DNA of 64,000 nucleotides from a bacterium. Lineage in GTDB: Bacteria; SM23-31; JAUVVT01. Position 1 is the stretch's first letter. The number at the start of each line of letters is the position of its first letter. Below are positions 8,060 through 57,559 of the stretch, piece after piece. A program made the position numbers and the translations under genes. The notes beneath the pieces are model-generated. The model was given only the letters and a program-made list of their open reading frames with translations, had not been told where the DNA came from and searched no databases. The DNA is taken from assembly GCA_030616165.1 (NCBI GenBank), contig JAUWXV010000001.1, forward strand, positions 17,843 through 81,842, given 5' to 3'.

Positions 8060-8081
8060 AAATATATTTTTTTAAAATCTT

Positions 8082-33984: not shown

Positions 33985-34051
33985 TGAAGTTGCATATTGA
34001 GCGAAATATAGCTAATGATTATTATTAGAAAATATAAAAGGATTGTTAAAA

Positions 34052-35994: not shown

Positions 35995-36050
35995 TAAGAT
36001 TATATTAACAGAGCAAACAGAACTAAAAATAAATTTAAAAGTGGATTTGA

Positions 36051-36278: not shown

Positions 36279-36332
36279 GGATTAAATCGAAATTGGTAGA
36301 GACTATTCGAATAATAAATACAGGAGAATAAA

Positions 36333-37001
36333 ATGAGAAGTCTTATGTTTAAGACATTGAAGGAAGATATTCAAACAGTTTTCAGTAAAGACCCGGCTGC
36401 CAAAAGCGTGATAGAGGTTATCTTTTGCTATCCTGGACTCCATGCCATTTGGATGAATAAAATTGCACATTTCTTCTGGATGCATAAGTTTCTCTTTATT
36501 GGAAGGTATATTTCCCATGTTAATCGCTGGCTGACGGGGATTGAGATTCACCCGGGAGCAAAGATTGGGAGAAGATTTTTTATTGACCATGGAATGGGAG
36601 TAGTAATAGGAGAAACTGCCGAGATTGGTGATGATGTTTTGCTTTATCAGGGCGTGGTTTTAGGTGGCAGAAGTTTCGAAAAGAAGAAACGGCATCCTAC
36701 TCTCGGAGATAATGTTGTTGTTGGAGCAGGGGCTGTTATTTTAGGTCCAGTAAATATCGGGGAAGGTGCAAAAATAGGGGCAGGGAGTGTGATACTTCAG
36801 GATGTTCCTTCGGGTGCAACAGCAGTTGGTGTTCCAGGGAAGATTAAAATGGGATTATCAGCTAAATTGATGGAGGATTTGGAACATGGGAAAATACCAG
36901 ACCCTATTTTCAGTACTATTCAGTTTATGATAGAGGAACAGGAAAAACTTGCAAAAAGGGTAAAAGTGTTAGAGTCTCAAGGCAGCAACTTTTCGAATTA
37001 G
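36333..37001 (+). CDS. cysE: serine O-acetyltransferase
   Basis: N-terminal SATase helical domain plus hexapeptide region [44 protein letters not shown]. Confidence 0.9.
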
Positions 37002-41320: not shown

Positions 41321-42829
41321 ATGACAAGGAAATTGCCACCCTTATTGTTAAATCCTATTAGTTTAATAGGGATTCTTATTGCTTTGACCAGTTTCATTGC
41401 CATTATAATTCTCTTTTTTGCTCATATTTTTTTAGCACCTGATAATCCATATATTGGAATAGTCACTTACCTGATTTTCCCAATCTTTTTAATAATAGGA
41501 TTACTTATAATTCCCTTCGGTATGTTTATTGAGAGACGGCAACAATTAAAAAGAAAAGGAATAAAAGAACGGCGTCTTCCAATTATCGATTTTAACCAGC
41601 AAGATCAGAGAAACGCTTTTATACTCTTTTTGATAGTTTTAATTATTTTTATGATATTGAGTGCTGTTGGAAGTTACAGAGCTTATGTTTTCACCGATTC
41701 AGTAGTTTTTTGTGGGAAAATCTGCCATTCTATAATGCATCCTGAATATATTACTTACATGGAGAGCCCTCATGCCCGGGTGTCATGTGCTGAGTGTCAT
41801 GTTGGAACAGGAGCCAACTGGTATGCCAAATCAAAGCTTTCCGGTGCATATCAGGTTTATGCTACAATAGCACAAAAATATCCTAAGCCTATTCCAACAC
41901 CTATCAAAAATTTACGACCAGCTCAGGAAACCTGTGAGCAGTGTCACTGGCCAGGGCAATTTTTTGGTGGGAAACAGAAAATATTTACTTATTATTTAAG
42001 TGATGAAGAAAACACCAAGTATGAAATTAATATGTTAATGAAGGTTGGTGGCGGAAATCCAAAATCCAGTAGAACTTCGGGTATTCACTGGCATATGAAT
42101 ATTCAGAATAAGATAGAATTTATATCAACGGATAATAAAAACAAAATTATTCCTTGGATTCGTTCTACTAACCTATTAACTGGGGAAGTAAAAACATTTA
42201 CTGATGAAGAGAACCCACTATCAGAAGAATTATTGTCAAAGAGTAAGCCTCATGTAATGGATTGTATGGATTGTCATAACCGACCAACTCATATCTTTAA
42301 GTCTCCAAGTCTTTCCGTTAATGAAAAAATTCTATTAAATCGAATTAATAAATCATTACCTGAGGTTAAATATATATCTGTTGAACTTCTTTCAGATGAT
42401 TATGAAACAACTGATATTGCAGTGAACACAATTGCCGAAGAGATTTGGAAATTTTACAGAGAAAATTATCCCAAGGTTTTTGAAAAGGAAAGGGATAGTA
42501 TAAAACAATCAATCAGAGAATTGCAGGAGATTTATCAGAGGAATATTTTTCCAGAAATGGGTGTAAAGTGGTCAGTTTATCCTGACCACATTGGACATCT
42601 TGATTTCCCGGGTTGTTATAGATGTCATGATAATAAACATATTACGGAATACGGAGACCGACTGGCGAATGATTGTAATCAATGTCACACAATTTTGTCG
42701 CAGGAGTTTGGAGGCGAAAAAGAAGAGACTCTCGACCCAAAAGGAATAAAATTTAAACATCCAGTTGATATTGGAGATGACTGGAAATTAGTAGGATGCC
42801 ATGAATGTCATACAGGATTAAATCCTTAA
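41321..42829 (+). CDS. inner-membrane heptahaem c-type cytochrome, ImcH-like (NapC/NirT-related quinol dehydrogenase)
   Basis: Three N-terminal TM helices. Seven haem motifs (CGKICH, CAECH, CEQCH, CMDCH, CYRCH, CNQCH, CHECH). Confidence 0.7.
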   Translation: MTRKLPPLLLNPISLIGILIALTSFIAIIILFFAHIFLAPDNPYIGIVTYLIFPIFLIIGLLIIPFGMFIERRQQLKRKGIKERRLPIIDFNQQDQRNAFILFLIVLIIFMILSAVGSYRAYVFTDSVVFCGKICHSIMHPEYITYMESPHARVSCAECHVGTGANWYAKSKLSGAYQVYATIAQKYPKPIPTPIKNLRPAQETCEQCHWPGQFFGGKQKIFTYYLSDEENTKYEINMLMKVGGGNPKSSRTSGIHWHMNIQNKIEFISTDNKNKIIPWIRSTNLLTGEVKTFTDEENPLSEELLSKSKPHVMDCMDCHNRPTHIFKSPSLSVNEKILLNRINKSLPEVKYISVELLSDDYETTDIAVNTIAEEIWKFYRENYPKVFEKERDSIKQSIRELQEIYQRNIFPEMGVKWSVYPDHIGHLDFPGCYRCHDNKHITEYGDRLANDCNQCHTILSQEFGGEKEETLDPKGIKFKHPVDIGDDWKLVGCHECHTGLNP

Positions 42830-42910
42830 AGCAAGTTTTAATAAAAATATAATTTACAATTTTTTATAAATATTATATATCGGACTCGATGTTTATCTGT
42901 CAATTAGATT

Positions 42911-44137
42911 TTATTGAGAAGATTCCTTTGCAATAGAAGACAGAGGTGTTGTTGCAGCTTCAGGCCATGGCGGAAGGATTTTTATGATTATATACAATAC
43001 GAATAGTGGAAGAAATAATAATGCAATGGATATCAAAAGACCTTCGATTCCTAAAAGTTCCATCTTATAATGGGTTAGTCCTCGAAGGCTTTTCGAGAAT
43101 AATTGACCACCTATCACGACGTTCCACCTTGTGCTGAATATCCCAATTTGAACTAAAATTGCCGCTCCAAAATAGATTAACCTACGTAACTCATCGGGGA
43201 GCCGGAATAGTTTTACAGATGCTAATGAACCCAAAGGCAGTAAAGTTCCCAGGAGTATTTGAATTACAACAAGACTTATAAACAATTTTTGTGATATCAA
43301 CTGGCCTAAAATGTGGATGGATTCAACAGACTCATACATCCGGTGGATAAAATCCAGGGTCTCGAGAGAAATATCAAGTATCATCGCATACAGCAGAAAT
43401 GACGCCAGTTTGTCCATGCATGCCATATCGATTGGTTTCCAACGAAAAAGGGTTGTTACACCATATATCAGGATCATCAACGCGATTCCTGAAACAATAG
43501 CCGAAAACAGAAATACAATAGGCATCAACACGCTGCTCCACCAGGGATTTGCCTTCACGGAGCCAAAAATAAAACCTACATATCCATGCAGTAAAAATGC
43601 TGACGGGATACCGATTATGGTAATAAACTTTCCTGCTTTACGGTCAAATCGTATTGCCTTTTCGGACAGGTCCAGTGAGCCTAATGAAAGAAGATAGTAC
43701 ATATACTTTCGCCATCCTTTTTTACTCCGAGCCCAATAAACGATGTCCTTCCTATAATCAAACCATATTTCGAGCATTAACACTATCATCAAGTACCAGG
43801 CGTAAACAAATCCGAACATTGCCATTGCTGACTTTAATTGAGGAGTGAGAAAAATTTCAATTGACCGTTCGGGGTAACTAAGGTGTGCAAGGAGCGGAAG
43901 TGGGGCTATGATCAGAAATGCCAGCGCAGTCAACATAGACAGGCGGTATGTAGGTTGAACTTCTTTTACTTCAAAAACACGCTCCAGTGAAGCAAGGATG
44001 AATGCCCCTGCGACAAGCCCTGTGATATATGGATATACGACTATCAAAATCCCCCAATGGAGTTCCACCTCGTTTGGATAAATATACCCAACCACTTGTT
44101 TTAAGATTGGCTGTAGTTGTTCGATTAAATTTTCCAT
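42911..44137 (-). CDS. NrfD/PsrC-type polytopic quinone-interacting membrane subunit
   Basis: About 10 TM helices with NrfD-like organisation; 2 bp downstream of the FeS subunit gene. Confidence 0.75.
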   Translation of the reverse strand: MENLIEQLQPILKQVVGYIYPNEVELHWGILIVVYPYITGLVAGAFILASLERVFEVKEVQPTYRLSMLTALAFLIIAPLPLLAHLSYPERSIEIFLTPQLKSAMAMFGFVYAWYLMIVLMLEIWFDYRKDIVYWARSKKGWRKYMYYLLSLGSLDLSEKAIRFDRKAGKFITIIGIPSAFLLHGYVGFIFGSVKANPWWSSVLMPIVFLFSAIVSGIALMILIYGVTTLFRWKPIDMACMDKLASFLLYAMILDISLETLDFIHRMYESVESIHILGQLISQKLFISLVVIQILLGTLLPLGSLASVKLFRLPDELRRLIYFGAAILVQIGIFSTRWNVVIGGQLFSKSLRGLTHYKMELLGIEGLLISIALLFLPLFVLYIIIKILPPWPEAATTPLSSIAKESSQ

Positions 44138-44139
44138 AA

Positions 44140-44898
44140 TTATCTCACTTCCCCATCCAAGTTAGCGTAATAAATTTTTGGTTCCGTATTAAGATGAGGT
44201 TTCAGAACCTGGACTTTGTTGAAACGCATGAATCGGGCTAATAGGCTGCTGCGCAAACCGATCTCGCCAAATATCCTCGCTTCGGTTGGACAAACTTCAA
44301 CACAAGCGGGCTTTAGACCCCGGGATAAACGATGATAGCAGAATGTACATTTTTCCGCCGTACTGGTCACAGGGTTAAGAAACCTTGCTCCGTACGGACA
44401 TGCCTGAATACAATAACGACACCCGAGGCAGTAATCTTTATCGATCAATATCACTCCATCCTTAGTGATAAATGTAGCACCTACCGGACATACCTGCACG
44501 CATGGTGGATTAGCACACTGGTTGCACAATTTTGGCACAAAGAAGGTCCGCATGATCTCATTTTCGGCAACCATTTCAGGAAAACCCTCACTTCCCCCAT
44601 TTGGGCTATCAACCTGTGCTGTCCCATCAATAAGAATTATGTACCGCTCAACCCAAGTCCGGAAAAAGAATGGTTCACGAGGTACATCATTTTCCCGCTT
44701 ACATGCATCTACACACTGTCCACAACCGATGCACTTGTCGACCTGAATTCCCATCCCGTATTGATGTATTGGTTCATTATCATTTGATGAATCAGAATCT
44801 TCTGAAGCAGGAGACCCGAATAATAACAGTACGGTTCCTACAAGTGTGCTTTCCCGTAGAAACTCTCGGCGATTCATCAATTCACGTTTCTTTTTCAT
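44140..44898 (-). CDS. Tat-exported 4x[4Fe-4S] ferredoxin subunit (NrfC/PsrB/DsrO-like)
   Basis: MKKKRELMNRREFLRESTLVG Tat signal. Four CxxCxxCxxxCP clusters. Start set at ATG 44898 (ATGA overlap with the upstream cytochrome stop). Confidence 0.85.
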   Translation of the reverse strand: MKKKRELMNRREFLRESTLVGTVLLLFGSPASEDSDSSNDNEPIHQYGMGIQVDKCIGCGQCVDACKRENDVPREPFFFRTWVERYIILIDGTAQVDSPNGGSEGFPEMVAENEIMRTFFVPKLCNQCANPPCVQVCPVGATFITKDGVILIDKDYCLGCRYCIQACPYGARFLNPVTSTAEKCTFCYHRLSRGLKPACVEVCPTEARIFGEIGLRSSLLARFMRFNKVQVLKPHLNTEPKIYYANLDGEVR

Positions 44899-45764
44899 CA
44901 GCGCACCTCCGGATAATGTGGATAATGACATTGCCAGCACGCATGATCAGGCTCATGTGACTGAAGGTCCACCCGCGGTATTTCCCCGGCACTTTCTGCA
45001 TTTTCTCCATGACAACCACCGCAAAATGTTCTCTTCCGTGGTTTACTGGGACGAAATGACCGGGGATCTTTTTTATGTGCTTCAGGAGCAGAGTGACACT
45101 GGGTACACTCCAGGGCAGCATGGTGTGAGACAGCTTTTGTCCGCGCAATTTCCCCGTGACATGCTCCACATTCCTCAGGGGGTTGCGGAGGTTTGGGATC
45201 ATGGGGTTCGTGACAAGACATACAGGGTTCTAAAGGATTATGTGTGACTATATTAATTTGGGGGAATCCCGTTGGCTTGGACGCATTATATATATGACAG
45301 AGGGGACATAAACCCCGCTGACGTGGAGCCGAAGGAGTATTTTCGCTGGGATCCTCAACATGGTTTGCACCTGGCCCATGGCATACTTCGCAGGCAACAT
45401 TCTGATGATAAGATGTTTGTTTTAACGCTACATATTCATCGTGACACTCTGAACACGCTTCCTGCCCAGCATAATGGATTGGAAGAGCTAATATAGAATC
45501 TATGGCAGCTGCTCGGTAGTGTCCCTCTTTTACAAAGGTGGGCGGCATTAAGTAATTCCGGACGGTAATGAGCATTATCACTAAAATAATAAAAATAATA
45601 AGTAAGCGTTTTATTTGGTCTGGAAAAGGAATTGATTTCCAGCCCGGCATTCTTAATTCTGGACGAAATCGAAAATTTAACATGTTTTTTGTCTGAATCA
45701 GCTTTTTAATATCAATTAAGTAATGAAAAACGAGATAATGAAAAATTTCATGGAATTTTAACAA
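44898..45764 (-). CDS. membrane-anchored octahaem c-type cytochrome
   Basis: TM helix LLIIFIILVIMLITV. Eight CxxCH motifs (CSECH, CEVCH, CPLCH, CMSCH, CGACH, CTQCH, CGGCH, CWQCH). The true start is probably an internal Met. Confidence 0.8.
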   Translation of the reverse strand: MLKFHEIFHYLVFHYLIDIKKLIQTKNMLNFRFRPELRMPGWKSIPFPDQIKRLLIIFIILVIMLITVRNYLMPPTFVKEGHYRAAAIDSILALPIHYAGQEACSECHDEYVALKQTSYHQNVACEVCHGPGANHVEDPSENTPSAPRQRGLCPLCHIYNASKPTGFPQINIVTHNPLEPCMSCHEPHDPKPPQPPEECGACHGEIARTKAVSHHAALECTQCHSAPEAHKKDPRSFRPSKPRKRTFCGGCHGENAESAGEIPRVDLQSHEPDHACWQCHYPHYPEVR

Positions 45765-46047
45765 ATTCAGTAAAATGAGAAAATCTATACGAATTTGGAA
45801 CTTATATCACTTGACTATTGTTAATCATTTGAAATTGTAATTTTCAATAAAAGATTTATATTTTGAAAAAAATATGGAGAAATTTTGAAAATTGTTAAAA
45901 AATTTGACATACAACCCCAAATGAAAATATGTATTATCAATCCCTTTTTATAATTGTATAAATTATATAAATAATATAAAATATTTTAAATTAAATATCA
46001 ATAATTTTTTTATTAATATTTTTTATAATTTATATATTTTATTTATC
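45765..46047. promoter_or_regulatory. AT-rich divergent intergenic region between two respiratory operons
   Basis: About 280 bp at under 20% GC, with multiple TATAAT-like and TTGACA/TTGACT hexamers in both directions. Confidence 0.35.
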
Positions 46048-46110
46048 TTGACTTTTTTAAAAAAAAATTATATTATTAAGAAAAATTTCATACTTAATAA
46101 CCAAACGATA

Positions 46111-46551
46111 ATGGAAGAGAGAAACACATCAAGAAAGAGTTTTATTAATTACCTGTTAGGCGGTGGTTTTACTCTTGTCGCAGCTTCTTTCTTATATCCA
46201 ATAGTGAGGTTCGTGCTCCCTCCAAAATCGACCGAAGCAGAACCTATGGCAGTATCTGCTGGCAAGGTTGGCGAGATGCATTTAAATTCTGGGAAGATAT
46301 TTAAATTTGGAAGAAAACCTGGTCTGCTTATTTATACAGAACAGGGTGAATATCAGGCATTTATGGCAACCTGTACACATCTTGACTGCATTGTGCAATT
46401 CCGAAATGATTCTGAAAGCATCTGGTGTGCTTGCCATAATGGATATTATGACCTTAATGGAAATAATATATCTGGTCCGCCCCCAAGACCCTTAGAAAGA
46501 CTGAATGTTTTTATAAAAGATGATGATATAATGGTTTCAAAAATTACTTAA
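46111..46551 (+). CDS. Rieske [2Fe-2S] iron-sulfur protein
   Basis: CTHLDC...CACHNG Rieske boxes and N-terminal TM/Tat-like anchor. Start at ATG 46111. Confidence 0.85.
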
Positions 46552-46552
46552 A

Positions 46553-47626
46553 ATGAAGACCTACACAACCAATCTCATTAATTGGCTTGATAAAAGATAC
46601 AACATAAAAGAAATAATAGGATTTATTACAGAAAAGAAGGTCCCTATTTACAAACACACTATCTGGTATTATATGGGAGGGATAACCCTTCTTTTTTTTA
46701 TCATTCAGGTTTTAACTGGCATACTTCTTCTTCTCTATTACCGACCTACTCCTGAGGAGGCATTTGAAAGTGTTCAATTTATTATGACACAGGTTCACTA
46801 CGGATGGCTTATCCGCTCTATTCACAGTTGGTCAGCAAATCTTATGATTCTTTTTGCATTTATACATATGTTCAGTGTATTACTCCTGAAATCTTACAGA
46901 CCTCCACGTGAACTAACATGGGTAACCGGTGTGCTGTTAATGTATATATCTCTTGCTTTTGGCTTCACGGGTTATCTCCTTCCGTGGAATGAATTGTCCT
47001 TTTTTGCCACAAAAGTTGGTACTGACATAGCGGGAGTTATTCCTTTTATTGGAAAATTCATTATTAGATTCCTGAGAGGTGGAGAAGACGTTACAGGAGC
47101 GACCTTGACGAGACTCTTTGGATTTCATGTTGCTGTCCTTCCAGGAGTAATCATTGTGATTTTGGTTATACATTTATTGATGGTTCAACGACAGGGAATG
47201 AGCAAACCGATAGGCTTAAAAGAAGTGAAGAAGGGGATGCTATTTTTCCCGGACTTTTTTTTAAGAGACCTTTTAGGATGGCTATTTGCAGTTGGGATTC
47301 TTGCAGCTCTGGCTGCTATCTTTCCCTGGGAACTGGGGCAGAAGGCAGACCCATTTTCATCTGCTCCAGAAGGCATCGCGCCTGAATGGTATTTTTTATT
47401 TATGTTTCAAACATTAAAATTCTTCCCCGCAAGAATATTAATTTTAGACGGCGAAGTGATTGCAGTCTTTATTTTCGCAGCACTCGGAATATTCTGGATT
47501 CTAATCCCATTTCTTGATACTAAAGCCAGAAGGGAACAAAAAAGCCCGATATTTACAACTATAGGTATTTTTGCAATTCTATACGTGGGGATAATTACTA
47601 TACTTTCTTATTTTGTATTTAAGTAA
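46553..47626 (+). CDS. cytochrome b (fused b6/subunit IV-type) of a Rieske/cyt b complex
   Basis: [38 protein letters not shown] (haem-ligating His helices), PEW motif region. Confidence 0.9.
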
Positions 47627-48933
47627 TGTATTCGCATAATCTTATGAAAAATATTATTAGACATTTCAACATTATTTACATACTATTTTTATTTATTTTT
47701 CTCTTCCCCGCTATATATTTATTTCCACAAGAAAGGCACAATAATTGTATCGAATGCCACAGTAAATTCGAAGAAGAAGAGACATCGCCAACCATTGAAT
47801 TTAAAAATGATATCCATAATACAAGTGGTATGTTATGTTCTGACTGTCATGGTGGAGACCCGGAAATAAATGCAGGTGGAAATCAAGAACTTGCTATGAA
47901 TCCTAAAAAAGGATATAAACCACCTCCGGGTCATAACGAAATCCCCGAATTCTGTGCAAGATGCCATTCTGATTTTGAATATATGAAAAAATTTAATCCC
48001 AATATAAGAGTAGACCAATATGAAAATTATTTAACAAGTCAACACGGGAAATTACTGGCAAAGGGAGATGATAAAGTAGCTAATTGTGTTAGTTGTCATA
48101 AAACCCACGGGATTCGAAAAAAAACAAACCCTGCCTCAGCCGTTTTTGCAAACAAAATTCCGGAAACTTGTAGTAAATGCCACTCAGACCCGGAATATAT
48201 GAAGGAATATAAAATCCTGACTAACCAGTTGGAAATGTATAAAAAAAGTGTTCACGGGGAATTTTTATTGGAAAAAGGGGACTTAAATGCTCCTGCTTGC
48301 AATGACTGCCACGGAAATCACGGTGCCGCTCCCCCGGGTGTCGAATCTGTACACAATGTCTGCGGAGTATGTCACTCAGGAAATAATCAGTTGTTCTTAA
48401 AAAGTTCTCATAAAAAATACTTTGATGAATTTGGCTTTCCAGAATGTGCATCATGTCATGAACATCATTTAATAAAAAAACTTACAGAAGAATCTCTCGG
48501 GGTTGGAGACCAATCTGTTTGCGGAATTTGTCATACACAAGAAGATGAAGGAGGTATAATCGCTGTTGAAATGAAAAATATTATCGAAAATTTTTCTGCA
48601 CTGCGGGATACTTGCCAAATATTGTCCGAAGAGGTAGAAAGGAAGGGTATGCCCGTTAATGAAATAAAATACCAGATGAACAATGTTGACTCTGAACTGT
48701 TAAAAGCAAGAAATATAGTGCATAGTTTTTCTCTGGAAAATATAAAACAAATAACTGAAGAAGGAACAAAACTTGCCATCTCTGTAAAAAAAATGGCAAA
48801 TGATGAATTAAAAGAATATCAAATTAGGAGAATAGGACTGGCTGTCTCGCTTTTCTTTATTTTTTTAGCGGGAACCGCCCTCTATTTGAAAATCAAGAAG
48901 ATAGACAAAAAAAATATAATAAATTCTTTTTAA
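47626..48933 (+). CDS. nonahaem c-type cytochrome with N- and C-terminal membrane anchors (cytochrome c subunit of the Rieske/cyt b complex)
   Basis: Nine CxxCH motifs. C-terminal TM IGLAVSLFFIFLAGTALYL. 1-bp overlap with the cyt b stop. Confidence 0.8.
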   Translation: MYSHNLMKNIIRHFNIIYILFLFIFLFPAIYLFPQERHNNCIECHSKFEEEETSPTIEFKNDIHNTSGMLCSDCHGGDPEINAGGNQELAMNPKKGYKPPPGHNEIPEFCARCHSDFEYMKKFNPNIRVDQYENYLTSQHGKLLAKGDDKVANCVSCHKTHGIRKKTNPASAVFANKIPETCSKCHSDPEYMKEYKILTNQLEMYKKSVHGEFLLEKGDLNAPACNDCHGNHGAAPPGVESVHNVCGVCHSGNNQLFLKSSHKKYFDEFGFPECASCHEHHLIKKLTEESLGVGDQSVCGICHTQEDEGGIIAVEMKNIIENFSALRDTCQILSEEVERKGMPVNEIKYQMNNVDSELLKARNIVHSFSLENIKQITEEGTKLAISVKKMANDELKEYQIRRIGLAVSLFFIFLAGTALYLKIKKIDKKNIINSF

Positions 48934-49298
48934 CTATAAATTGATGGTATAACAAATTTAAAAATAAAATCTTAAAATTTTGTGCACTTAATCAGAGATG
49001 CAATATATAAGTTTCAGAAAAAATATTTGACAATTAAAAATATTTTGTTATATTATCATAATATATAATTAATATAATTATTATAATCAATATATTTTAT
49101 ATCTTTTCAATACCTAAATCGAATAATTTTAATTATTTATATAAATATTTCTTTCTGGTATAAATATGATAAAAATGCTGAAATAATATGCGTAAATACC
49201 TAATTCTCTGTTCTTCTATTACCTATTTTTTTAATCCAAATTCTCATATAAAATAATTTTTATAAATATGAGAATAGAATTTTTATTAGGAGGATTCA

Positions 49299-52076
49299 AT
49301 GAAATCAAGACTTTTAGCTTTAATTGCGATAAGTATTCTCAGTATGTTTATAATCAAAATATTAATTGCCCAAAGTTCTGAACCAACTGCAAAGATTAAA
49401 CTCGATTTTGTTACCTCGCATAAGATTGACGTTGATACGGCTTTGACATCCACAGGGAAAGCCTCAGGGCTGAATAATGTAGGTGTCGGTGAAACTGTTT
49501 ATCCGGTGGGTGTTGCTACCGGTACGAATATTACTTATCAGTGGTCTATTGATGGACCGACAGGTTCTTCAGCAACTTTAAGCAGTACTATCGAAGACAG
49601 TATACACTTTCAGCCGGACGTAGAAGGGATTTATATATTAACTCTCACGGTTACTGCTGATGAAGGAACAGCAACTTCCTCAATCAAGGTTCAGGCGGCG
49701 AAATATATAGGTGTTGGAAAAATTGATGGTCTTAAGTCTGAATTTCCTCAGTGTGGCATAGGATGCCATTATACTATTTATGACAAATGGATTCAAACAG
49801 GACATGCTACAGCATTCAGCAGGAAACTGGATGAAGAAGGCGGACATTTCGGTTCAAATTGTATAGATTGTCATTCAATAGGTTATAATACACTTACTAA
49901 TGCGGTTAATAATGGATTTGATGATATAGCAAGTAGCCTTGGATGGACCTTCCCTGATACCTTAAAATCGGGAAATTGGCAGAATATGATAAACAATTAT
50001 CCCTCACTTGCCCAGAGAGCAAATATACAATGTGAAAATTGCCATGGTCCAGGCAGCGGTCATAATTTTAAAGATGGTCCAATTGAAGAATCCGGTATCG
50101 GTAAGACCTATGAGCCTGGTATTTGTGCATATTGTCATGATGCTCCTACTCACCATGTGTATTTTCCTGAGTGGGAAAAAAGCGGTCATAATACAGTAGA
50201 TGATCACATGAATAGTTCATCATGTGCCAAATGCCATACAGGGAAGGGTTTTGTAATCCAAAATATAAGAGGTGAGGCATCTGAAGCACCTTATGTTGAG
50301 GGTGCGGCTGTTACTTGTGCAGCCTGTCATGACCCTCACGATGCTACAAATGAACATCAATTACGGAAAGTTTCGAATGTTACACTTAATGATGAAACAA
50401 CAGTGGTTTCTGAAGGAGGATTGGGAAAACTTTGTATGAACTGCCATCTTTCAAGAAGAGATGCAGAAGAATATGTAACTAAATATCATAGTCATTTTGG
50501 CCCTCATCACTCGAATCAAACAGATATGTTAGTTGGTGCAAATGCTATAGAGTTCGGGCTCTCCATGCCGGAGACTGGACATATCAAAGCAGTTGAAGAT
50601 GCTTGTGTCACATGTCACATGGCAGAACAGCCAAAAGAAAATAAAGATGAAGGTATATCCAAGGTTGGTTCGCATACTTTCAGTATGGTTAGCACCGTTG
50701 GAACTGATACAACTTACAATGTTGAGATATGTCAGGGCTGTCACGGCAGTGAAATTGAAAAATTTGAAGATGTAAAAGCATCTTCGGATTATGATGGTGA
50801 TGGCACGATAGAAGGAGCTGTAGCGGAAGTTGAAGGTTTAATGCATCAATTGGGAATGCTTCTTCCACCATTAGATGAGCCTGGAGTTTCTGTAGCTAAA
50901 GATTATACTCCTGTACAGCTTAAGGCTGCGTATAACTATGAATTCGTTGATGATGATGCAAGCCATGGAGTTCACAATACATCTTATACAGTTGCAATTT
51001 TGAAGGCTGCAATTCAGGCAATTTCTACTGGAGATATTGGAGCGGGCAGTATTATAGCAATTGATGATGTTCCTAACGACCAGGGGAAACAGGTACGAAT
51101 ACGTTGGAATCGTTTTTCGGGAGATGGAAAATTAGACAATCCTATTGGGAAGTACGGAATATGGCGGCGTATCGATGATATGAGTTTGGCAAAGAATGCT
51201 AATACTGTTTCATCTTATGAGGATATGTTCAATAGTCTGGAAAAAATTTCTGAAGGAAGTCAATTCGTGGTCACTGAAAGCGGAGAACTCTGGGATTTTG
51301 AAAAAGAAGTCTCTGCAGTCGGGGAAGACAAGTACAGCACAATTACTGCTACGCTTTTTGATTCTACAATTACAGATGGCATGCACTGGTCTGTTTTTTA
51401 CATTTCTGGTCATTCACTCGAAGGTGGATTAGTTGTGAAATCTGCTGTGGACAGTGGTTATTCAGTTGATAATTTGGCACCTGCAGTACCTGTTCTAAAG
51501 ATAGCATCAAAAACAGCCGGTATGGTTACTGTAGAATGGGATGCTCCTGTGGATGAGGACTTCAAATACTTCAATGTATATCGGGGAACAGAGCAGGGGT
51601 TTGACCCTGCGACTGTTGAGCCAATTTTGAGAAGGGTAGATGCTGAATTCACCGAAAATCTTTCTGCTGTTGGTGAAAAATATTATTACAGGATTAGTGC
51701 TGTGGATTTCAGTGGGAACGAATCAGGATTTTCACTGGAAATTTCTGAGGATAACGTAATAACCAGTCTTGAACTTGGTAATATCAGTAGTATCCCAGGA
51801 AAGTTCGCTCTGGAACAGAATTATCCGAACCCATTTAACCCGATAACACATATACGTTATCAACTGCCAAAAAGTACTAATGTCACTCTACATATATATG
51901 GTATCACCGGTAATCTGATTCGTACTCTTGTCAGCGAATACCAGCACCAAGGTTTTATAGAGGTTGAATGGAATGGAAAGGATGATTTTGGTAGCTCGGT
52001 AGCATCTGGAATTTATATTTATAGAATTACAGCAGGGAAGTTCTCGGATAGCAGAAAAATGATTCTCATAAAATAA
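49299..52076 (+). CDS. secreted nonahaem c-type cytochrome with beta-sandwich region and T9SS C-terminal sorting domain
   Basis: Signal peptide. Nine haem motifs (CGIGCH, CIDCH, CENCH, CAYCH, CAKCH, CAACH, CMNCH, CVTCH, CQGCH). C-terminus LEQNYPNPFNPITHIRYQLPKSTNVTLHIYGITGNLIRTLV...GIYIYRITAGKFSDSRKMILIK matches the Por/T9SS CTD consensus. AGGAGG RBS. Confidence 0.8.
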   Translation: MKSRLLALIAISILSMFIIKILIAQSSEPTAKIKLDFVTSHKIDVDTALTSTGKASGLNNVGVGETVYPVGVATGTNITYQWSIDGPTGSSATLSSTIEDSIHFQPDVEGIYILTLTVTADEGTATSSIKVQAAKYIGVGKIDGLKSEFPQCGIGCHYTIYDKWIQTGHATAFSRKLDEEGGHFGSNCIDCHSIGYNTLTNAVNNGFDDIASSLGWTFPDTLKSGNWQNMINNYPSLAQRANIQCENCHGPGSGHNFKDGPIEESGIGKTYEPGICAYCHDAPTHHVYFPEWEKSGHNTVDDHMNSSSCAKCHTGKGFVIQNIRGEASEAPYVEGAAVTCAACHDPHDATNEHQLRKVSNVTLNDETTVVSEGGLGKLCMNCHLSRRDAEEYVTKYHSHFGPHHSNQTDMLVGANAIEFGLSMPETGHIKAVEDACVTCHMAEQPKENKDEGISKVGSHTFSMVSTVGTDTTYNVEICQGCHGSEIEKFEDVKASSDYDGDGTIEGAVAEVEGLMHQLGMLLPPLDEPGVSVAKDYTPVQLKAAYNYEFVDDDASHGVHNTSYTVAILKAAIQAISTGDIGAGSIIAIDDVPNDQGKQVRIRWNRFSGDGKLDNPIGKYGIWRRIDDMSLAKNANTVSSYEDMFNSLEKISEGSQFVVTESGELWDFEKEVSAVGEDKYSTITATLFDSTITDGMHWSVFYISGHSLEGGLVVKSAVDSGYSVDNLAPAVPVLKIASKTAGMVTVEWDAPVDEDFKYFNVYRGTEQGFDPATVEPILRRVDAEFTENLSAVGEKYYYRISAVDFSGNESGFSLEISEDNVITSLELGNISSIPGKFALEQNYPNPFNPITHIRYQLPKSTNVTLHIYGITGNLIRTLVSEYQHQGFIEVEWNGKDDFGSSVASGIYIYRITAGKFSDSRKMILIK

Positions 52077-52127
52077 AAAGATCTTGAAAATTTTGCCATA
52101 ACATAATGAATAACAACAGTTTGTTAA

Positions 52128-52164
52128 AAAGAAAACAGTTCTTTGTGAGCTGTTTTCTTTTATT
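52128..52164 (+). terminator. Rho-independent terminator
   Basis: gaaaacag/ctgttttc 8-bp stem followed by TTTTATT. Confidence 0.5.
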
Positions 52165-52184
52165 AAGAAAGTAAAAATATCATA

Positions 52185-53288
52185 ATGAGTACGAATAAAT
52201 TACGAAAGTTATTACTGTGTATCTCATTAATAGGATTAGGAGCATTCTCATGCAGTGAGTTAGATATTAATAATCCTTTAACATATATAAATGATAAAAT
52301 ATCTTATGAAAAAGATATAAAACCTATTTTTGCGAATAGATGTATAGATTGTCATAGTGGAAGTTCGCCTGCAGGAAATTATAACCTTTCTTCCATATTA
52401 ACGATTATGGGGAACGGTACAGACTTGAAACCGAATGTAATTATCGGAAGTCCATATAGTCTTCTTCTGATGAAGATTATTATAGGGGACGATAACCACC
52501 GTGAGTGGATAGGCTCTGAAGAAAACACTCAAAAATTGTATAAATGGATAGTTGAGGATAGTTTGAGCATCAGTGAGCCGATTGTGCATCTTGCTGGACC
52601 TATGGATGTGGATTCACCAAATTTTCATGGACAGGATATTAGAAATAAAGCGTGGTCTATGGAATCATGTAAGCTCTGTCATGGAACTGACTATAATGGG
52701 GGTTCCTCAGAGGGTTCCTGTAACAAATGTCACGATCCAAACCCGGAGGAATGCACTACTTGTCATGGTTTTGGTATGCTTGATAATCATTTGGGAGCAC
52801 CACCTCCTGATCTGAGTAACAACATCGAGACTTCTTTTAGAGGAGTTGGCGCTCACACAATACACATGACAGAGGGCGATAATTCCGATGGTATTGAATG
52901 TGAATCCTGTCACATTGTTCCCCAAAATTTGTACGATGATGGTCATATTTTTTCTGAAGAGCCTGCAGAAGTTGTTTTTAGTTATCTTGCACATAATTTA
53001 GGAGCAGAACCAATCTGGGACACTGAAACCCTGACCTGTAAAGATGTTTACTGTCATGGAAATTTCCCTTCAGGAAACAAGGAGAATGCTCCAAAATGGA
53101 CTGGCTTTGATCCGAATCCACCGAGTTGTTCTCCTGCCTGCCACCAGTTTCCTCCTGTTGGTAAAACACGAACCGGTTTTAAACACTCTCCCAGTGTTTC
53201 TCAATGCTGGTACTGCCATTCCAATCTTGATAATAAATATAATTTTATTGATAAGTCAACTCATATTAATGGAATTATTGAAAGATGA
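52185..53288 (+). CDS. octahaem c-type cytochrome, probable lipoprotein (OmaB-like periplasmic component)
   Basis: Signal peptide ending GAFSC. Eight haem motifs including CxxxCH/CxxxxCH variants (CIDCH, CKLCH, CNKCH, CTTCH, CESCH, CKDVYCH, CSPACH, CWYCH). Confidence 0.7.
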   Translation: MSTNKLRKLLLCISLIGLGAFSCSELDINNPLTYINDKISYEKDIKPIFANRCIDCHSGSSPAGNYNLSSILTIMGNGTDLKPNVIIGSPYSLLLMKIIIGDDNHREWIGSEENTQKLYKWIVEDSLSISEPIVHLAGPMDVDSPNFHGQDIRNKAWSMESCKLCHGTDYNGGSSEGSCNKCHDPNPEECTTCHGFGMLDNHLGAPPPDLSNNIETSFRGVGAHTIHMTEGDNSDGIECESCHIVPQNLYDDGHIFSEEPAEVVFSYLAHNLGAEPIWDTETLTCKDVYCHGNFPSGNKENAPKWTGFDPNPPSCSPACHQFPPVGKTRTGFKHSPSVSQCWYCHSNLDNKYNFIDKSTHINGIIER

Positions 53289-54580
53289 ATAAACTCATAA
53301 GTGTTAAAATTATTTTGTTATATTTAATCTTTACAATTCTGCCATTATATGAGAATTATGGTCAGGTTATTACGGGAAGAGTGTCATCGTATATGTACAG
53401 CTGGCAAATTCAGGACCAACAGTCAGGTTCCTCTGAACATATTCGTTTGTATCAAACCCTTGTTATGAATGTTAAAAATGTTGGGAGCCCAAAAGTCTCT
53501 TTGCATACCAATATACGCTATACGAAGGACTTCATTAATGATAGCGATTACAATCACAATTGGAAATTTCAATATTTTTATGGACAGGTAAAAAAGGTTC
53601 TTCAAGTAGCAGATATTAAATTTGGTCGGCATTATGTATATTCTGGCGTTGGCAATGGTTCAATTGACGGGATTTCTACAAAGATAAAAGTAAAAGAAAT
53701 TGCTGATTTTGAATTTTATGGCGGAATGCCTGTTTCATGGTATCATGAAATAAAGGTCCAGAAATGGAACGAGAGTAGAATGTATGGATTACGAATACAG
53801 CCGAGAATGTTCTTGAATACATTGGTGAGTATAAGTTATGTTCAAAAAAAGATGAATCCCCTCCCTTATAAGATTCCTGGGAAGTTTACTTTCAAAAAAT
53901 GGGATATAACTTCTGATGCAGTGGAATTTGTTGGATTGGATTTCTATACTCAATGGTCTGAAAAAACGAGCGCGTATGGCCGCCTCGATTGGGATATGAC
54001 GTATGATGACATTTATCGGATAAATTTTTATTATAACAGGTCGCTCTTCAATAAATTTTCTCTCAGTGCTGAATACTACTATAGAAAACCGCGGATTTAT
54101 AATAATTCGATTTTTAGTGTGTTTGCTCAGCACGATAACCGAGAATACTGGTTTCGAATTTATTATAATATTAAAGAAAATCTGTCTGTATCCGGCGGAA
54201 CATCAATTGTTATTTATTCGGGAGATAAGGGATATCGACATAATGTAAGTATATATTCAAATCGTTTTAGTATTGGCTATAATCATACAAGCGGTTACAG
54301 CGGTAGATTGGATGGATTAACAGGAAGCGTTAATTATCCGATAAGAAATAATATATGGCTGAAGGGCGGTACAAATATTTCACGATACAAGCTGTTTGAA
54401 CATCTTGAAGACTTTGAAAATGTGTTAAGTACGTTTGCAGGAATTTCAATAATGCCCAAAAAAACTTGTACGCTGGATATCGAAGGGCAGGGATTACATA
54501 ATTATAATCACAGCAGTGATTTTCGGATACTTTTGAGAGCTAACTGCTGGTTTTCATTTGGTAAAATACGGAAAAATTAA
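53285..54580 (+). CDS. outer-membrane beta-barrel (porin-like) protein embedded between cytochrome genes
   Basis: Signal peptide. Dyad-repeat beta-strand pattern, aromatic girdle residues, no Cys/haem motifs. 4-bp overlap with the upstream cytochrome gene. Confidence 0.55.
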   Translation: MNKLISVKIILLYLIFTILPLYENYGQVITGRVSSYMYSWQIQDQQSGSSEHIRLYQTLVMNVKNVGSPKVSLHTNIRYTKDFINDSDYNHNWKFQYFYGQVKKVLQVADIKFGRHYVYSGVGNGSIDGISTKIKVKEIADFEFYGGMPVSWYHEIKVQKWNESRMYGLRIQPRMFLNTLVSISYVQKKMNPLPYKIPGKFTFKKWDITSDAVEFVGLDFYTQWSEKTSAYGRLDWDMTYDDIYRINFYYNRSLFNKFSLSAEYYYRKPRIYNNSIFSVFAQHDNREYWFRIYYNIKENLSVSGGTSIVIYSGDKGYRHNVSIYSNRFSIGYNHTSGYSGRLDGLTGSVNYPIRNNIWLKGGTNISRYKLFEHLEDFENVLSTFAGISIMPKKTCTLDIEGQGLHNYNHSSDFRILLRANCWFSFGKIRKN

Positions 54581-54592
54581 GGTGTTTATTAC

Positions 54593-55771
54593 ATGACACA
54601 TGTGAAAATAATCAAAACTGTTAAATGGGTTTTTTTCTTTTTTATTGTTTATTATGGAAGTTATTACTCTATAATTGCTGCTCAAAAAAATTCTATTATT
54701 TTTTCTCATAAACTGCATATCGAAGATATAGGAGCAGAATGTGTTGATTGTCATTCAACCATCCCGGAAAGTCAGGAAATGGATGATAAAAATCTACCAA
54801 AACATGAAGAATGCTTTATGTGTCATGATGATGATATAGCATCTCAAAAATGCGGTACTTGTCATTCTGATCCGGATAATCCCGAACCGTTGGAAAATCC
54901 AATTCGTGAATTTTATTTCAACCATGTATTTCATATCAAGGAACAAAATATGGAATGCGATAATTGTCATCAGGGATTGGAAAAAGTTGACTATGCACAG
55001 AAAGAAAATCTCCCGAGTATGGAACAATGTTATCAATGTCATGATGGTGTGACAGCATCGCAAAGATGTGAAGATTGTCATACACCTACAGCTCGCCTGA
55101 TTCCAATGACTCACACCCCTGACTGGAAATTAATTCATAAGCATTCATCAAATTTAATAGAATCAGAATGCATGACATGCCACCAAGAGAATTATTGTGA
55201 AGATTGTCATACGGGAACACGATTGCTGGAAATTGGAAATGAAGATAAAGACTATGTTAATCCCAACATTCCTTCGAGTGAAGGGAAAAAGAATATGGTT
55301 CTTCAAAGGGTGCATGAACTTAATTATCGTTACACACATGGAATTGATGCTAACGATAAAAAACTGAATTGTTCTTTTTGCCATCAAGAAACACAATTTT
55401 GCGTTAGATGTCATCAAGAAGAAGAAAAGATAAATATTTTAAAACCTTCCTGGCATTCAGGACCGGAATGGGGTGCTATTGTTGAAGCAGTGGGTTCAGG
55501 GGGAGGAAGGCATGCTCGGCTTGCCAGGAGAGACATTGAAAGATGTGCAGCCTGCCATGATTCACAGGGAGAAGACCCTGTTTGTCTTATGTGTCATAGA
55601 GATTTTCTTCCAGGAAGAGGAAATGATTTAAGAACACATTTTATAGGAATGTTTTCTGGGGCAGGAGAGGGAGCATGGCATGTTGATGAAGGTTCTATAT
55701 GTTTTAATTGCCATGTAAATTCTATGACACCCGGTGTGGGATTTTGCGGATACTGTCATAGCATCAAATGA
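54593..55771 (+). CDS. 14-haem c-type cytochrome (OmcB-like outer component)
   Basis: N-terminal signal/anchor; 14 CxxCH motifs in 392 aa. Confidence 0.8.
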   Translation: MTHVKIIKTVKWVFFFFIVYYGSYYSIIAAQKNSIIFSHKLHIEDIGAECVDCHSTIPESQEMDDKNLPKHEECFMCHDDDIASQKCGTCHSDPDNPEPLENPIREFYFNHVFHIKEQNMECDNCHQGLEKVDYAQKENLPSMEQCYQCHDGVTASQRCEDCHTPTARLIPMTHTPDWKLIHKHSSNLIESECMTCHQENYCEDCHTGTRLLEIGNEDKDYVNPNIPSSEGKKNMVLQRVHELNYRYTHGIDANDKKLNCSFCHQETQFCVRCHQEEEKINILKPSWHSGPEWGAIVEAVGSGGGRHARLARRDIERCAACHDSQGEDPVCLMCHRDFLPGRGNDLRTHFIGMFSGAGEGAWHVDEGSICFNCHVNSMTPGVGFCGYCHSIK

Positions 55772-55897: not shown

Positions 55898-57559
55898 ATG
55901 AAATTAAGCACCTCTAAATCAAAAAAGAAAGCAGATGCAGAAGATAGTCAAATTGAAATTTTTGGTAAAATGCTTACAGCAATAGAATATATTGAAAGAT
56001 GCCACGAATTTGCAAGTCTTATTCCTGAGGTAAGGAGTAATTTGGTTTATGCAAAACTAAATCCGCAGTCGCCTGAAGACGTTGCAGGGATTGATGGACG
56101 TATAACTGTAGTTAATGATAAGCCATATCCTGCAGGAAGACCTAAATTTGGTGCATCGAGCCATATGGCACGGCTTATAATCGAAATAAGAAAAATAGAT
56201 CCAAAAATTCGTGCAGGTATTAATTTTGTATGTAATCCTGAACTGGAAAAGTGGTTGGAGAATTACTGCAGAGAAAAAGGATGGATATTCAGTAAGATTG
56301 ACCGCTCAAAAGAGCCGGAAAAGGTTACAAAGAGAGAGGGAGCATCGATGCCCTGGAAGATAAACGAAGCTGTAAAATCTGCCGGCAATAAAGTACCGAA
56401 GATTTTTTATGAGACGGGAGCTGTAGGAAAAGAAGAAGTTGCGGTACTTATAGGAGAAGACCCGGTCGAGGTTGCAAAGGAAGTTTGTGAGATTGCAAGG
56501 TTATATATCCAGAGTCAACACCCAAAACCTAAAGTAGGTAAGGTGGATCTTGATACTTTTGAATCATTTATCCAACCCCGCCTTGGTAAAAAAGATAAGA
56601 CTGTTATTGTTCCGCCATTTACCGGGATTGATGCTGGTGTTATTGCTGTAGATGATAAAAAGGTACTAATCATTGCAGAAGACCCGATATTTTCTATACC
56701 AAAACAACCGTTAGAAATGTTCGGCTGGTATGCTGTTCACATTGGAGCAAGTGATGTTGCCGTGATGGGTGTCAAGCCGAGATATATGACATATACCCTT
56801 TTAATGCCGCCTGAAACACCCGAAAAACATTTCCGGAGTATTATCGAATCTATTCATAGAACAGCATCTGAACTCGAAATAGCAATAGTCGGAGGACATA
56901 CAGGATATTATCCCGGATTCGCGGCACCCACGATTGGAGGCATAACTGTATTTTCATTCGCCGATAAGCAGAGTTACGTCACTCCGGGTGGCGCAAAACC
57001 GGGTGACGATGTTATCCTTACAAAAGGTCCTGCGATAGAGACTGCGGGGATATTAGCGGTTCTACGTGAAAAAGAACTTCTTGAAAAATATCCTTCAACA
57101 CTTGTTGAAAAGGCAAAATCTCTTTGTAAACAAATGACCGTGGTAGAAGATGCCTTGACTGCAATGGAAGCAGGTGGTGTTACTGCAATGCATGATGCGA
57201 CTGAAGGGGGTGTTATGGGAGGACTCTTTGAAGTTGCGAATGCCAGTGGTGTCGGTATGGAAATTAATGAAAATTCTTTCATCTATCCTGAAGAGGTTAA
57301 AGTAGTCTGCGAAACATTCAACATTGACACGGTGAAAGCAATTGCTGAAGGTTCTCTGATTATCACTGCAAAATCAACTAATTCAAATCAGATAATACGC
57401 AAGTTGAAAGAAAGAGGTATTAATGCGTCTGTTATAGGTAAAGTTACCGGCAATCCTGATAAAAGGACGATAAAAAGACTTAACGGTAAAACTATTCCAT
57501 TAGCCATTCCTGAACAGGACCCATTCTGGCAAATTTTCTTTGAAAGCCTGGAGAGTTAA
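55898..57559 (+). CDS. PurM-like (AIR-synthase-related; ThiL/HypE/SelD superfamily) protein with an N-terminal uncharacterised domain
   Basis: C-terminal half contains FTGIDAGVIAVDDKKVLIIAEDP and GGHTGYYPG, MHDATEGG PurM-fold motifs. Confidence 0.5.
   Translation: MKLSTSKSKKKADAEDSQIEIFGKMLTAIEYIERCHEFASLIPEVRSNLVYAKLNPQSPEDVAGIDGRITVVNDKPYPAGRPKFGASSHMARLIIEIRKIDPKIRAGINFVCNPELEKWLENYCREKGWIFSKIDRSKEPEKVTKREGASMPWKINEAVKSAGNKVPKIFYETGAVGKEEVAVLIGEDPVEVAKEVCEIARLYIQSQHPKPKVGKVDLDTFESFIQPRLGKKDKTVIVPPFTGIDAGVIAVDDKKVLIIAEDPIFSIPKQPLEMFGWYAVHIGASDVAVMGVKPRYMTYTLLMPPETPEKHFRSIIESIHRTASELEIAIVGGHTGYYPGFAAPTIGGITVFSFADKQSYVTPGGAKPGDDVILTKGPAIETAGILAVLREKELLEKYPSTLVEKAKSLCKQMTVVEDALTAMEAGGVTAMHDATEGGVMGGLFEVANASGVGMEINENSFIYPEEVKVVCETFNIDTVKAIAEGSLIITAKSTNSNQIIRKLKERGINASVIGKVTGNPDKRTIKRLNGKTIPLAIPEQDPFWQIFFESLES

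Follow-up and report, generated by a model that had tools for sequence, protein, structure and literature searches.

The stretch of DNA considered here covers positions 41321-55771 of a 64-kb window (the whole sequence analysed) from an uncultured, low-GC bacterium of the Fibrobacterota-Chlorobiota-Bacteroidota (FCB) group, and was examined by open reading frame (ORF) calls, haem-motif counts and Pfam and NCBIfam models. It is filled by 11 tightly packed ORFs, whose products are candidates for a pathway of extracellular electron transfer (EET) ending in a surface cytochrome tagged for secretion by the type IX system (T9SS). Six of the 11 genes encode c-type cytochromes, with 51 CXXCH, three CX3CH and one CX4CH motifs (55 in total), and the other five encode a Rieske/cytochrome b pair, an iron-sulfur (FeS) protein exported by twin-arginine translocation (TAT) together with an NrfD protein, and a haem-free β-barrel with 22 predicted strands. 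A first-pass annotation of the same DNA had counted nine genes, to be corrected to 11, and at least 55 haem sites, a figure that holds if the four atypical motifs are included, the canonical CXXCH motifs amounting to 51. Its Rieske/cytochrome b pair is borne out by matches to PF00355 and PF00033 (190 bits), its FeS/NrfD pair by PF13247 and PF03916 (118 bits), and its haem-free β-barrel by the lack of any haem motif and the 22 predicted strands; the functional layers that it had proposed (inner membrane, porin-cytochrome and T9SS tag) each pass the domain, model and synteny tests that were run. The T9SS-tagged cytochrome, a lipoprotein cytochrome, the barrel and a 14-haem cytochrome (c14) form a run of plus-strand genes. 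An octahaem cytochrome (c8), the FeS protein and NrfD are encoded in a minus-strand operon, the Rieske protein, cytochrome b and a nonahaem cytochrome (c9) in a plus-strand operon, and an ImcH-like cytochrome by a gene standing alone. Stop/start overlaps tie together the genes at 52185-54580, 46553-48933 and 44140-45764.

The T9SS-tagged cytochrome (49299..52076, plus strand, 925 aa) contains eight CXXCH motifs and one CX3CH motif. Its sorting domain, at residues 842-922, scores 38.2 bits with TIGR04183 (cutoff 23) and 28.0 bits with PF18962 (cutoff 27). The Por-secretion C-terminal domain (CTD) noticed in the first-pass annotation thus exceeds the curated cutoffs. Among 81 aligned orthologues there is no variation in its NxPNPFNP motif, and conservation extends to the nine haem motifs and to nine histidines outside them. 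In an AlphaFold2 model (predicted local distance difference test score 88.6), the signal peptide is followed by a PKD/Ig domain, a mainly helical nonahaem domain ending in three long helices that form a three-helix bundle, two to three β-sandwich/Fn3 domains that would make up a stalk, a disordered linker and a seven-strand sorting domain modelled at 850-923. Judged from sequence and model, the haem domain is OcwA-like and falls within the OcwA/OmhA clade of NrfA-related multihaem cytochromes: it shares with OcwA and OmhA sequence and fold homology, nine haem sites and the C-terminal three-helix bundle, NrfA and c554 being distant relatives. A protein search with this cytochrome gave 1603 matches. 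Among the best 120 of the 1603, most are near full length (about 880-950 aa, most with at least 94% query coverage) with 38-100% identity, alongside a small number of fragments and longer fusions. At least 120 relatives are found in KSB1, Calditrichota, Rhodothermia and Melioribacteraceae, and their only NCBI label is "T9SS type A sorting domain-containing protein". For the individual proteins of the window, the nearest named relatives belong to KSB1 and Calditrichota (31-46% identity).

The three genes downstream of the T9SS-tagged cytochrome would form an outer-membrane conduit. The first encodes a putative outer-membrane lipoprotein cytochrome (52185..53288, plus strand, 367 aa) with six CXXCH, one CX3CH and one CX4CH motifs and a TIGR01904 CxxxxCH/CxxCH domain (36.6 bits, cutoff 27), and its stop codon overlaps the start of the barrel gene. 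Its lipoprotein signal peptide ends in FSC-SE, and an x-[GSA]-C-[ST]-[DEKQT] ending is repeated in 14 homologues. After the lipobox cysteine, nearly all homologues have C-S/T followed by an acidic residue (CSE, CSD, CTTD; 52185-52270 in the window), a pattern presumably similar to the signal by which Bacteroidota export lipoproteins to the cell surface. The barrel itself (53285..54580, plus strand, 431 aa), the presumed sheath of the conduit, matches no Pfam or NCBIfam model; with 22 predicted strands it falls in the range of about 18-22 expected of a haem-free Pcc barrel. The presumed wire within it, the periplasmic cytochrome c14 (54593..55771, plus strand, 392 aa), has a Sec signal and 14 CXXCH motifs in c7-type repeats; it scores 72.7 bits with Cytochrome_C7 and matches c7-type PDB domains, namely ActA of alternative complex III (8k9e and 6f0k) and GSU1996 (3ouq). 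By its gene content the conduit is assigned to an already predicted porin-cytochrome (Pcc) type, because the gene layout equals that of Ignavibacterium album in Shi et al. Membership of the MtrAB/PioAB/MtoAB group was rejected, the 26-strand MtrB-family barrel and the decahaem MtrA not being found, and so was a Cyc2-type Fe(II) oxidase, as the barrel has no haem motif and the region has no monohaem-porin fusion.

The barrel family is large and has been left without a functional name. A word-indexed search found 37 matches and a full profile scan of 1.84 billion representatives found 999 members; the named members sampled are all "hypothetical proteins" from FCB-group phyla. With an alignment of 13 barrel sequences, 20 related genome loci were retrieved from Ignavibacteria, Bacteroidota, KSB1 and Zixibacteria (related loci are given L numbers here). 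A c14 homologue with 34-72% identity lies directly downstream of the barrel in 16 of these 20 loci, as it also does in L022, L025, L028 and L029, and a homologue of the lipoprotein cytochrome is present in 14 of the 20, so that the porin-cytochrome conduit read by the first-pass annotation recurs in relatives as a unit of barrel and cytochromes. Inner-membrane genes vary more: among the same 20 loci an ImcH homologue can be found in seven, a Rieske/cytochrome b/multihaem set in three and a multihaem cytochrome/FeS/NrfD set in one, and CbcL-like cytochrome c/b fusions occur near the barrel module in L010, L015, L016 and L022. This recurrence across loci implies that the association between inner modules and conduit is itself recurrent and that the choice of module varies. 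The CbcL-like fusions (e.g., L015 2566-4608) have 650-930 aa, 12-19 haem motifs and a cytochrome b domain of the Ni_hydr_CYTB type; in relatives they adjoin both the ImcH-like gene and the barrel module, and no such gene is present in the window.

Three modules that can be assigned to the inner membrane precede the outer genes in the window, the two multi-gene operons among them being intact. None of their products, nor any other protein of the cluster, reaches an NCBIfam equivalog cutoff. The ImcH-like heptahaem cytochrome (41321..42829, plus strand, 502 aa), a putative quinol:cytochrome c oxidoreductase, has one CX3CH motif (CGKICH, residues 131-136) followed by six CXXCH motifs (156, 205, 315, 432, 452 and 493). 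Hydrophobic helices can be read by eye from the translation at about 13-35, 45-70 and 99-121, a layout that recurs in seven homologues; residues 98-187 match PF03264 NapC/NirT (31.8 bits, cutoff 24.1), and the protein matches the NrfH structure 2j7a_C (E 5e-4). The seven haem motifs are invariant across eight homologues from related loci (42-48% identity), and homologues adjoin the barrel module or the T9SS cytochrome in nine loci (L008, L010, L011, L015, L016, L018, L022, L024 and L027). The ImcH family has been defined by a length of about 495-519 aa, three N-terminal transmembrane helices, a CX3CH right behind these helices followed by six CXXCH, and a NapC/NirT region (PMC4251993; PMC6295460), and all of these features are found in the product of the window gene, in agreement with the ImcH-like dehydrogenase of the first-pass annotation; the assignment is made, feature by feature, from this published description. 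ImcH homologues have been reported in Ignavibacteriae (3), Bacteroidetes (1) and Calditrichaeota (1), and so far only from Fe(III) reducers (PMC6295460). As in the window, imcH of Geobacter is monocistronic (Levar et al.).

The second module is encoded on the minus strand. Its first gene (44898..45764) specifies c8, with eight CXXCH motifs, Cytochrome_C7 and c3_2 domains and one hydrophobic helix ahead of the haem domain; the true start is probably the ATG at 45683 or at 45650. The "periplasmic octahaem" of the first-pass annotation is in fact this membrane-anchored protein opening the FeS/NrfD operon. The FeS subunit (44140..44898, about 252 aa) is a four-cluster protein of the NrfC/DsrO/TtrB kind, scoring 93 bits with PF13247, 201 bits with TtrB and 180 bits with DsrO, both of the latter being under the equivalog cutoffs. 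The sequence shows a twin-arginine motif (MNRREFL), and the gene most likely starts at the ATG at 44898, because this codon overlaps the upstream TGA by one base and is preceded, 6 nt upstream, by GGAGG. The last gene of the three (42911..44137) encodes the integral membrane, quinone-interacting subunit of the NrfD family (408 aa; PF03916, 117.9 bits), with weak NCBIfam matches to DsrP and NrfD. From these domains the trio reads as a molybdopterin-free member of the NrfCD/DsrOP/TtrBC kind; a homologous trio adjoins the barrel module in L007, and in Melioribacter a complex of this type is the proposed source of electrons for multihaem cytochromes of the periplasm (PMC3534657).

The third module consists of a Rieske 2Fe-2S subunit (46048..46551, plus strand, PF00355) with an N-terminal membrane anchor, a cytochrome b (46553..47626, plus strand, 357 aa) and c9 (47626..48933, plus strand). 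The Rieske subunit scores 78 bits with the b6f-type PetC model, and the cluster motifs CTHLDC and CACH can be read from its sequence. The cytochrome b fuses a b6-like N-terminal half to a C-terminal half resembling subunit IV (PF00033, 190.6 bits; PF00032, 33 bits); with NCBIfam models it scores 244 bits for cytochrome b6 and 219 bits for the ExtP-type cytochrome b, and in L004, L005 and L015 the barrel module is accompanied by homologues with 57-58% identity. The start of the c9 gene overlaps the cytochrome b stop, and its product has an N-terminal signal, nine CXXCH motifs and a C-terminal hydrophobic helix; 11-haem homologues come after the Rieske/cytochrome b genes in the same three loci. 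The features of a Rieske/cytochrome b complex are thus present, apparently as a variant in which the third subunit is a membrane-anchored nonahaem cytochrome in place of cytochrome c1 or f.

Ten genomic contexts of the T9SS cytochrome were examined, that of the window included. In five genomes (the window, L025, L029 and the KSB1 loci L022 and L028) the cytochrome gene lies directly upstream of the barrel module, the identity of the cytochrome being 42-80% in four of them, all but L028. No T9SS cytochrome is found within 10 kb of the barrel in the 20 loci from the barrel search. In L024 and L027 the cytochrome adjoins an ImcH-like gene, L027 also having cytochrome-maturation genes and, nearby, another CTD cargo (GH26). 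Its neighbours in L026 (5502-8518) are genes for a multicopper oxidase, a Zip transporter and a FeoA-domain iron repressor of the DtxR type, and in L024 (12990-16871) a Fur gene is beside the orthologue. In L023 and L030 the contig ends soon after the cytochrome gene. L024 also encodes a second T9SS-tagged multihaem cytochrome (962 aa) with an EB_dh/CBM9-like domain.

Among these contexts, the near relative L025 (ENA ERZ27275847) is the most instructive about modularity. Both of its flanks are 87-92% identical to the window at the nucleotide level and its four outer genes are intact. Between them, L025 9110-9986 corresponds to window positions 41735-49283 and retains only fragments of 41735-41935, 42542-42651, 45787-45883 and 46269-46711, which derive from the ImcH gene, from the intergenic stretch upstream of c8 and from the Rieske/cytochrome b junction. 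Two pieces of the ImcH gene have come to form a chimeric ORF of 132 aa, and the nucleotide comparison detects no match in L025 to the NrfD, FeS, c8 or c9 genes. This patchwork could be due to gene decay, or to variation between strains or assemblies. Since L025 keeps the outer genes with mere remnants of the inner modules, the four outer genes appear to be the conserved core, and the inner modules to be dispensable or replaceable. The content of the "supercluster" described in the first-pass annotation is thus confirmed, and its unity gives way to a modular arrangement.

Homology, structure models and gene order in about 30 related loci support the reading that the region encodes a modular EET pathway leading from the inner membrane to the cell surface, and this reading is considered probable. 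Three alternative inner-membrane modules (the monocistronic ImcH-like heptahaem, the octahaem/FeS/NrfD complex and the Rieske/cytochrome b complex with its membrane-anchored nonahaem) would take electrons from the quinol pool and reduce multihaem cytochromes facing the periplasm, and each may suit a different acceptor potential, by analogy to ImcH, CbcL and CbcBA of Geobacter. The 14-haem c7-repeat cytochrome would thread the barrel and supply electrons to an acceptor at the outer face, the lipoprotein cytochrome, which would hand them on to the OcwA-like surface cytochrome. The latter would be loaded with haem in the periplasm, cross the outer membrane in a folded state via the T9SS and, once its sorting domain has been removed, be held at the cell surface on its stalk, where it may deliver electrons, as the terminal reductase, to acceptors that are insoluble or of high molecular weight (Fe(III)/Mn(IV) oxides, humics or electrodes, for instance). 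The four outer genes would be the functional core of such a pathway and the inner-membrane modules exchangeable parts. Outward electron flow is favoured over inward flow on two grounds, relatives of ImcH having been reported so far from reducers alone (PMC6295460) and OcwA and OmhA being reductases themselves.

Several observations weigh against the proposed pathway, some concerning secretion and others leading to rival explanations. No T9SS machinery genes are found within the 64-kb window, and a hidden Markov model of 105 sorting domains finds no second CTD protein among the ORFs of these 64 kb; the bacterium's being T9SS-positive and the covalent anchoring of the cytochrome therefore stay inferred. 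Some type A CTD cargo in other bacteria is released and not anchored. Ignavibacteriota, Rhodothermota and other phyla of the FCB group are reported as possible carriers of a T9SS (PMC11285876). As regards the direction of electron flow, the same hardware might be fed with electrons by Fe(II), by a cathode or by a syntrophic partner, with the Rieske/cytochrome b and NrfD modules feeding the quinone pool or driving reverse electron flow. This is considered rather unlikely, even if Rieske/cytochrome b complexes and multihaem conduits can run either way. The Rieske/cytochrome b complex is the classic uphill branch of acidophilic iron oxidisers. Mtr-like multihaem conduits are bidirectional, proteins of the CbcL and MtoC types occur in reducers and oxidisers alike (PMC6295460), and metagenome-assembled genomes of Ignavibacteriaceae have markers of Fe oxidation such as Cyc2 elsewhere in the genome (PMC6344600). 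However, the restriction of known ImcH homologues to Fe(III) reducers argues for outward flow, as does the fact that OcwA and OmhA, to which the surface cytochrome is most closely related among characterised proteins, are terminal reductases (PMC6703420; PMC7829351), and within the region there is neither a Cyc2-like fused monohaem porin nor any oxidase or carbon-fixation gene.

A second rival explanation concerns the substrate, since OcwA reduces nitrite and hydroxylamine in vitro, having two haems with open coordination (PMC6703420), so that the surface cytochrome could likewise have a soluble substrate. It would then be an enzyme for soluble or colloidal compounds (detoxification of nitrite or hydroxylamine; reduction of selenite, tellurite or polysulfide), to which the conduit just supplies electrons. 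In line with this, the distal histidines H286 (conserved in 95%) and H403 (100%) align at or beside the HH motifs of OcwA, their partners H285 and H404 being poorly conserved (14% and 57%), though the alignment of these loops is uncertain; the cytochrome b scores 219 bits against ExtP, a cytochrome of the Geobacter selenite/tellurite-reduction operon; and NrfA and c554 are distantly related to the haem domain. Yet no CXXCK or other dedicated catalytic motif is present, the kcat of OcwA for nitrite (about 1 per minute) is far under that of true NrfA (PMC6703420), a soluble substrate would need neither a trans-outer-membrane wire nor a stalked surface protein, and the Fur and DtxR-type regulators beside orthologues point to iron, all of which makes such an enzyme unlikely. 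It is quite improbable, lastly, that the region is no single system at all, i.e., that three independent quinol oxidoreductases serving other periplasmic reductases lie by chance beside a four-gene outer-membrane unit. The condition of L025, with four outer genes and remnants of three inner modules, fits such a view, and it implies that the inner modules are not obligatorily coupled to the conduit. The modules also lie on different strands in separate operons, and complexes of the Rieske/cytochrome b and NrfCD types serve many acceptors (PMC5317091; PMC3534657). Against chance, inner-module genes recur right beside the barrel module in Ignavibacteria, Bacteroidota, KSB1 and Calditrichota, adjacency across lineages being the pattern that functional partners would give, and the c-subunits of both complexes are multihaem wires, not a monohaem c1 or a catalytic subunit.

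With outward EET as the preferred reading, a broader proposal can be made, tentatively and at slightly less than even chances, for KSB1, Calditrichota, Rhodothermia, Melioribacteraceae and the lineage of the window. Across the FCB superphylum, the T9SS may be a dedicated surface route for terminal metal reductases: a nine-haem OcwA-type holo-cytochrome would be exported folded through the translocon and anchored by the sortase, with a rigid Ig/Fn3 stalk, right over the 22-strand conduit, making up a four-component outer-membrane EET machine that has no counterpart in Geobacter or Shewanella and that would connect the OcwA lineage of Gram-positives with an origin in diderms.

It is already known that EET-like cytochrome clusters, ImcH homologues and a Pcc cluster occur in Ignavibacteria and their relatives (PMC4245776; PMC6295460; PMC7399161; PMC6344600). 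What is apparently new is the recognition of a large conserved family of T9SS-tagged proteins as OcwA-like, the operonic coupling of such a cytochrome to a porin-cytochrome conduit and the part in EET that this implies for the T9SS. No paper linking the T9SS with multihaem cytochromes or EET was found in the literature searched, which excluded most subscription journals, and the multi-omics paper on M. roseus does not discuss the cluster genes. The first-pass annotation had called an EET architecture with such a CTD-bearing terminal cytochrome uncharacterised to its knowledge; the ImcH homologues and the I. album Pcc cluster had been predicted before, and it is the T9SS-sorted cytochrome and this combination of parts that appear undescribed. 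Molecular detail on EET is limited to Shewanella, Geobacter and a few Firmicutes, yet anode biofilms, iron-rich sediments and humic waters abound in Ignavibacteria, Bacteroidota and KSB1. If the proposal is true, these three groups would gain a concrete, testable EET pathway, redox proteins would join a T9SS cargo so far composed of proteases, carbohydrate-active enzymes (CAZymes) and adhesins, and the OcwA scaffold, described as a Gram-positive solution, would be widespread in diderms. The T9SS cytochrome, lipoprotein cytochrome, barrel and 14-haem cytochrome would also provide a four-gene marker for EET annotation in metagenomes, in which the barrel family and the T9SS cytochrome are now annotated only as "hypothetical protein" or "T9SS type A sorting domain-containing protein".

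The surroundings of the region appear unrelated to it, with an FAD oxidoreductase gene (38654-41254) on one side and ThiN/AIRS (55898-57559) on the other, and the remainder of the 64-kb window contains housekeeping genes. The former, directly upstream of the ImcH-like gene, encodes a protein of 866 aa with two halves, each an FAD-dependent oxidoreductase; in L025 the corresponding DNA is annotated as two separate genes (457 and 403 aa). An assimilatory sulfur block (32691-36345) is absent from the otherwise collinear L025; it includes genes for a sulfite/nitrite reductase-like protein (33028-33984), a phosphoadenosine phosphosulfate (PAPS) reductase (34043-34777) and a PALP enzyme fused to TusA (34717-35994). 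On the minus strand, 6698-14916 encodes an FhaA-like forkhead-associated (FHA) protein, a second FHA protein, a penicillin-binding protein (PBP) transpeptidase, FtsW/RodA, the products of two unassigned ORFs and a Ser/Thr kinase with TPR repeats; this resembles the actinobacterial fhaA-fhaB-pstP-rodA-pbpA-pknAB cluster for cell-wall regulation and is unusual for an FCB-group genome. An ORF of 802 aa with a dienelactone-hydrolase domain (19301-21709) may be horizontally acquired, its block having a GC content of 0.495 against about 0.35 for the window. The ORFs at 15566-17005, 24077-25489 and 26146-27603 (470-485 aa) have no Pfam match at E≤1e-6. Just downstream of the latter two, 25415-25536 and 27529-27825 are both matched by one and the same L025 segment, which hints at repeated DNA around these ORFs. 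An Rfam scan of the whole window gave zero RNA families, and promoter and terminator scans gave counts that were not above those in shuffled sequence.

Among known systems, the closest to the conduit is the I. album cluster, in which IALB_1839 is the porin, IALB_1838 a periplasmic cytochrome of 400 aa with 14 haems, called the largest periplasmic cytochrome of the Pcc kind, IALB_1837 an outer-membrane cytochrome with atypical motifs and IALB_1840 a small periplasmic cytochrome (Shi et al., 2014; PMC4245776). As in the window, IALB_1837-1840 comprise a haem-free barrel adjoining a 14-haem periplasmic cytochrome of about 400 aa and an outer cytochrome with CX3-4CH motifs, the presumed link between the window barrel and IALB_1839 being drawn from these described neighbours. 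The Ignavibacteria loci L004-L018 from the barrel search show exactly the four-gene layout of I. album. In contrast, the lipoprotein cytochrome lies upstream of the barrel, and not downstream of c14, in the window, L001, L003, L022 and L025; the window has no small periplasmic tetrahaem of the IALB_1840 type, and its conduit is preceded by the T9SS-sorted cytochrome that the 20 barrel-search loci lack within 10 kb. The I. album cluster is a distant relative of OmaB/OmbB/OmcB from Geobacter, and no experimental characterisation of IALB_1837-1840 was found in the literature searched.

For the surface cytochrome, the relevant comparison is with OcwA from Thermincola potens and OmhA from Carboxydothermus ferrireducens (PDB 6I5B and 6QVM), whose haem domain is homologous to its own and which are the characterised surface terminal reductases of Gram-positive iron reducers (PMC6703420; PMC7829351). 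Whereas OcwA and OmhA are located on the wall or S-layer of monoderm Firmicutes, the window cytochrome comes from a diderm; it has in addition an N-terminal PKD domain, a β-sandwich/Fn3 stalk and a T9SS sorting domain, and unlike them it is operonic with a trans-outer-membrane conduit. OcwA had been grouped with Gram-negative nonahaem cytochromes, of which neither the architecture nor the sorting was described (Gavrilov et al., 2021), and a later evolutionary study still took the OcwA clade as Clostridial (PMC9250108).

Regarding the inner membrane, the architecture of ImcH from Geobacter sulfurreducens is matched by the window heptahaem, and CbcL-like fusions can be found only in relatives of the window. 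In Geobacter, too, the ext region (extHIJKL; Cbc6/ExtM-Q) has Rieske/cytochrome b genes next to an outer-membrane conduit, and the NCBIfam ExtP match of the cytochrome b points the same way. Unlike Geobacter, the window has an octahaem/FeS/NrfD complex and a Rieske/cytochrome b complex bearing a nonahaem cytochrome, with no CbcL-type fusion, and the two lineages (FCB group and Desulfobacterota) are unrelated. MtrCAB of Shewanella shares the logic of the conduit, i.e., a periplasmic multihaem wire in a barrel and an outer lipoprotein cytochrome. The type II secretion of Shewanella carries the folded holo-cytochromes MtrC and OmcA to the surface, and the job proposed for the T9SS would be equivalent. 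T9SS type A cargo (RgpB, CAZymes, adhesins) is built, like the window cytochrome, from a Sec signal, a passenger, Ig/Fn3 spacers and a seven-strand Ig-like CTD, and in a PDB search the sorting domain matches the CTD of PorU itself; unlike known T9SS cargo, the passenger is a nine-haem redox protein, which would need cytochrome c maturation before export.

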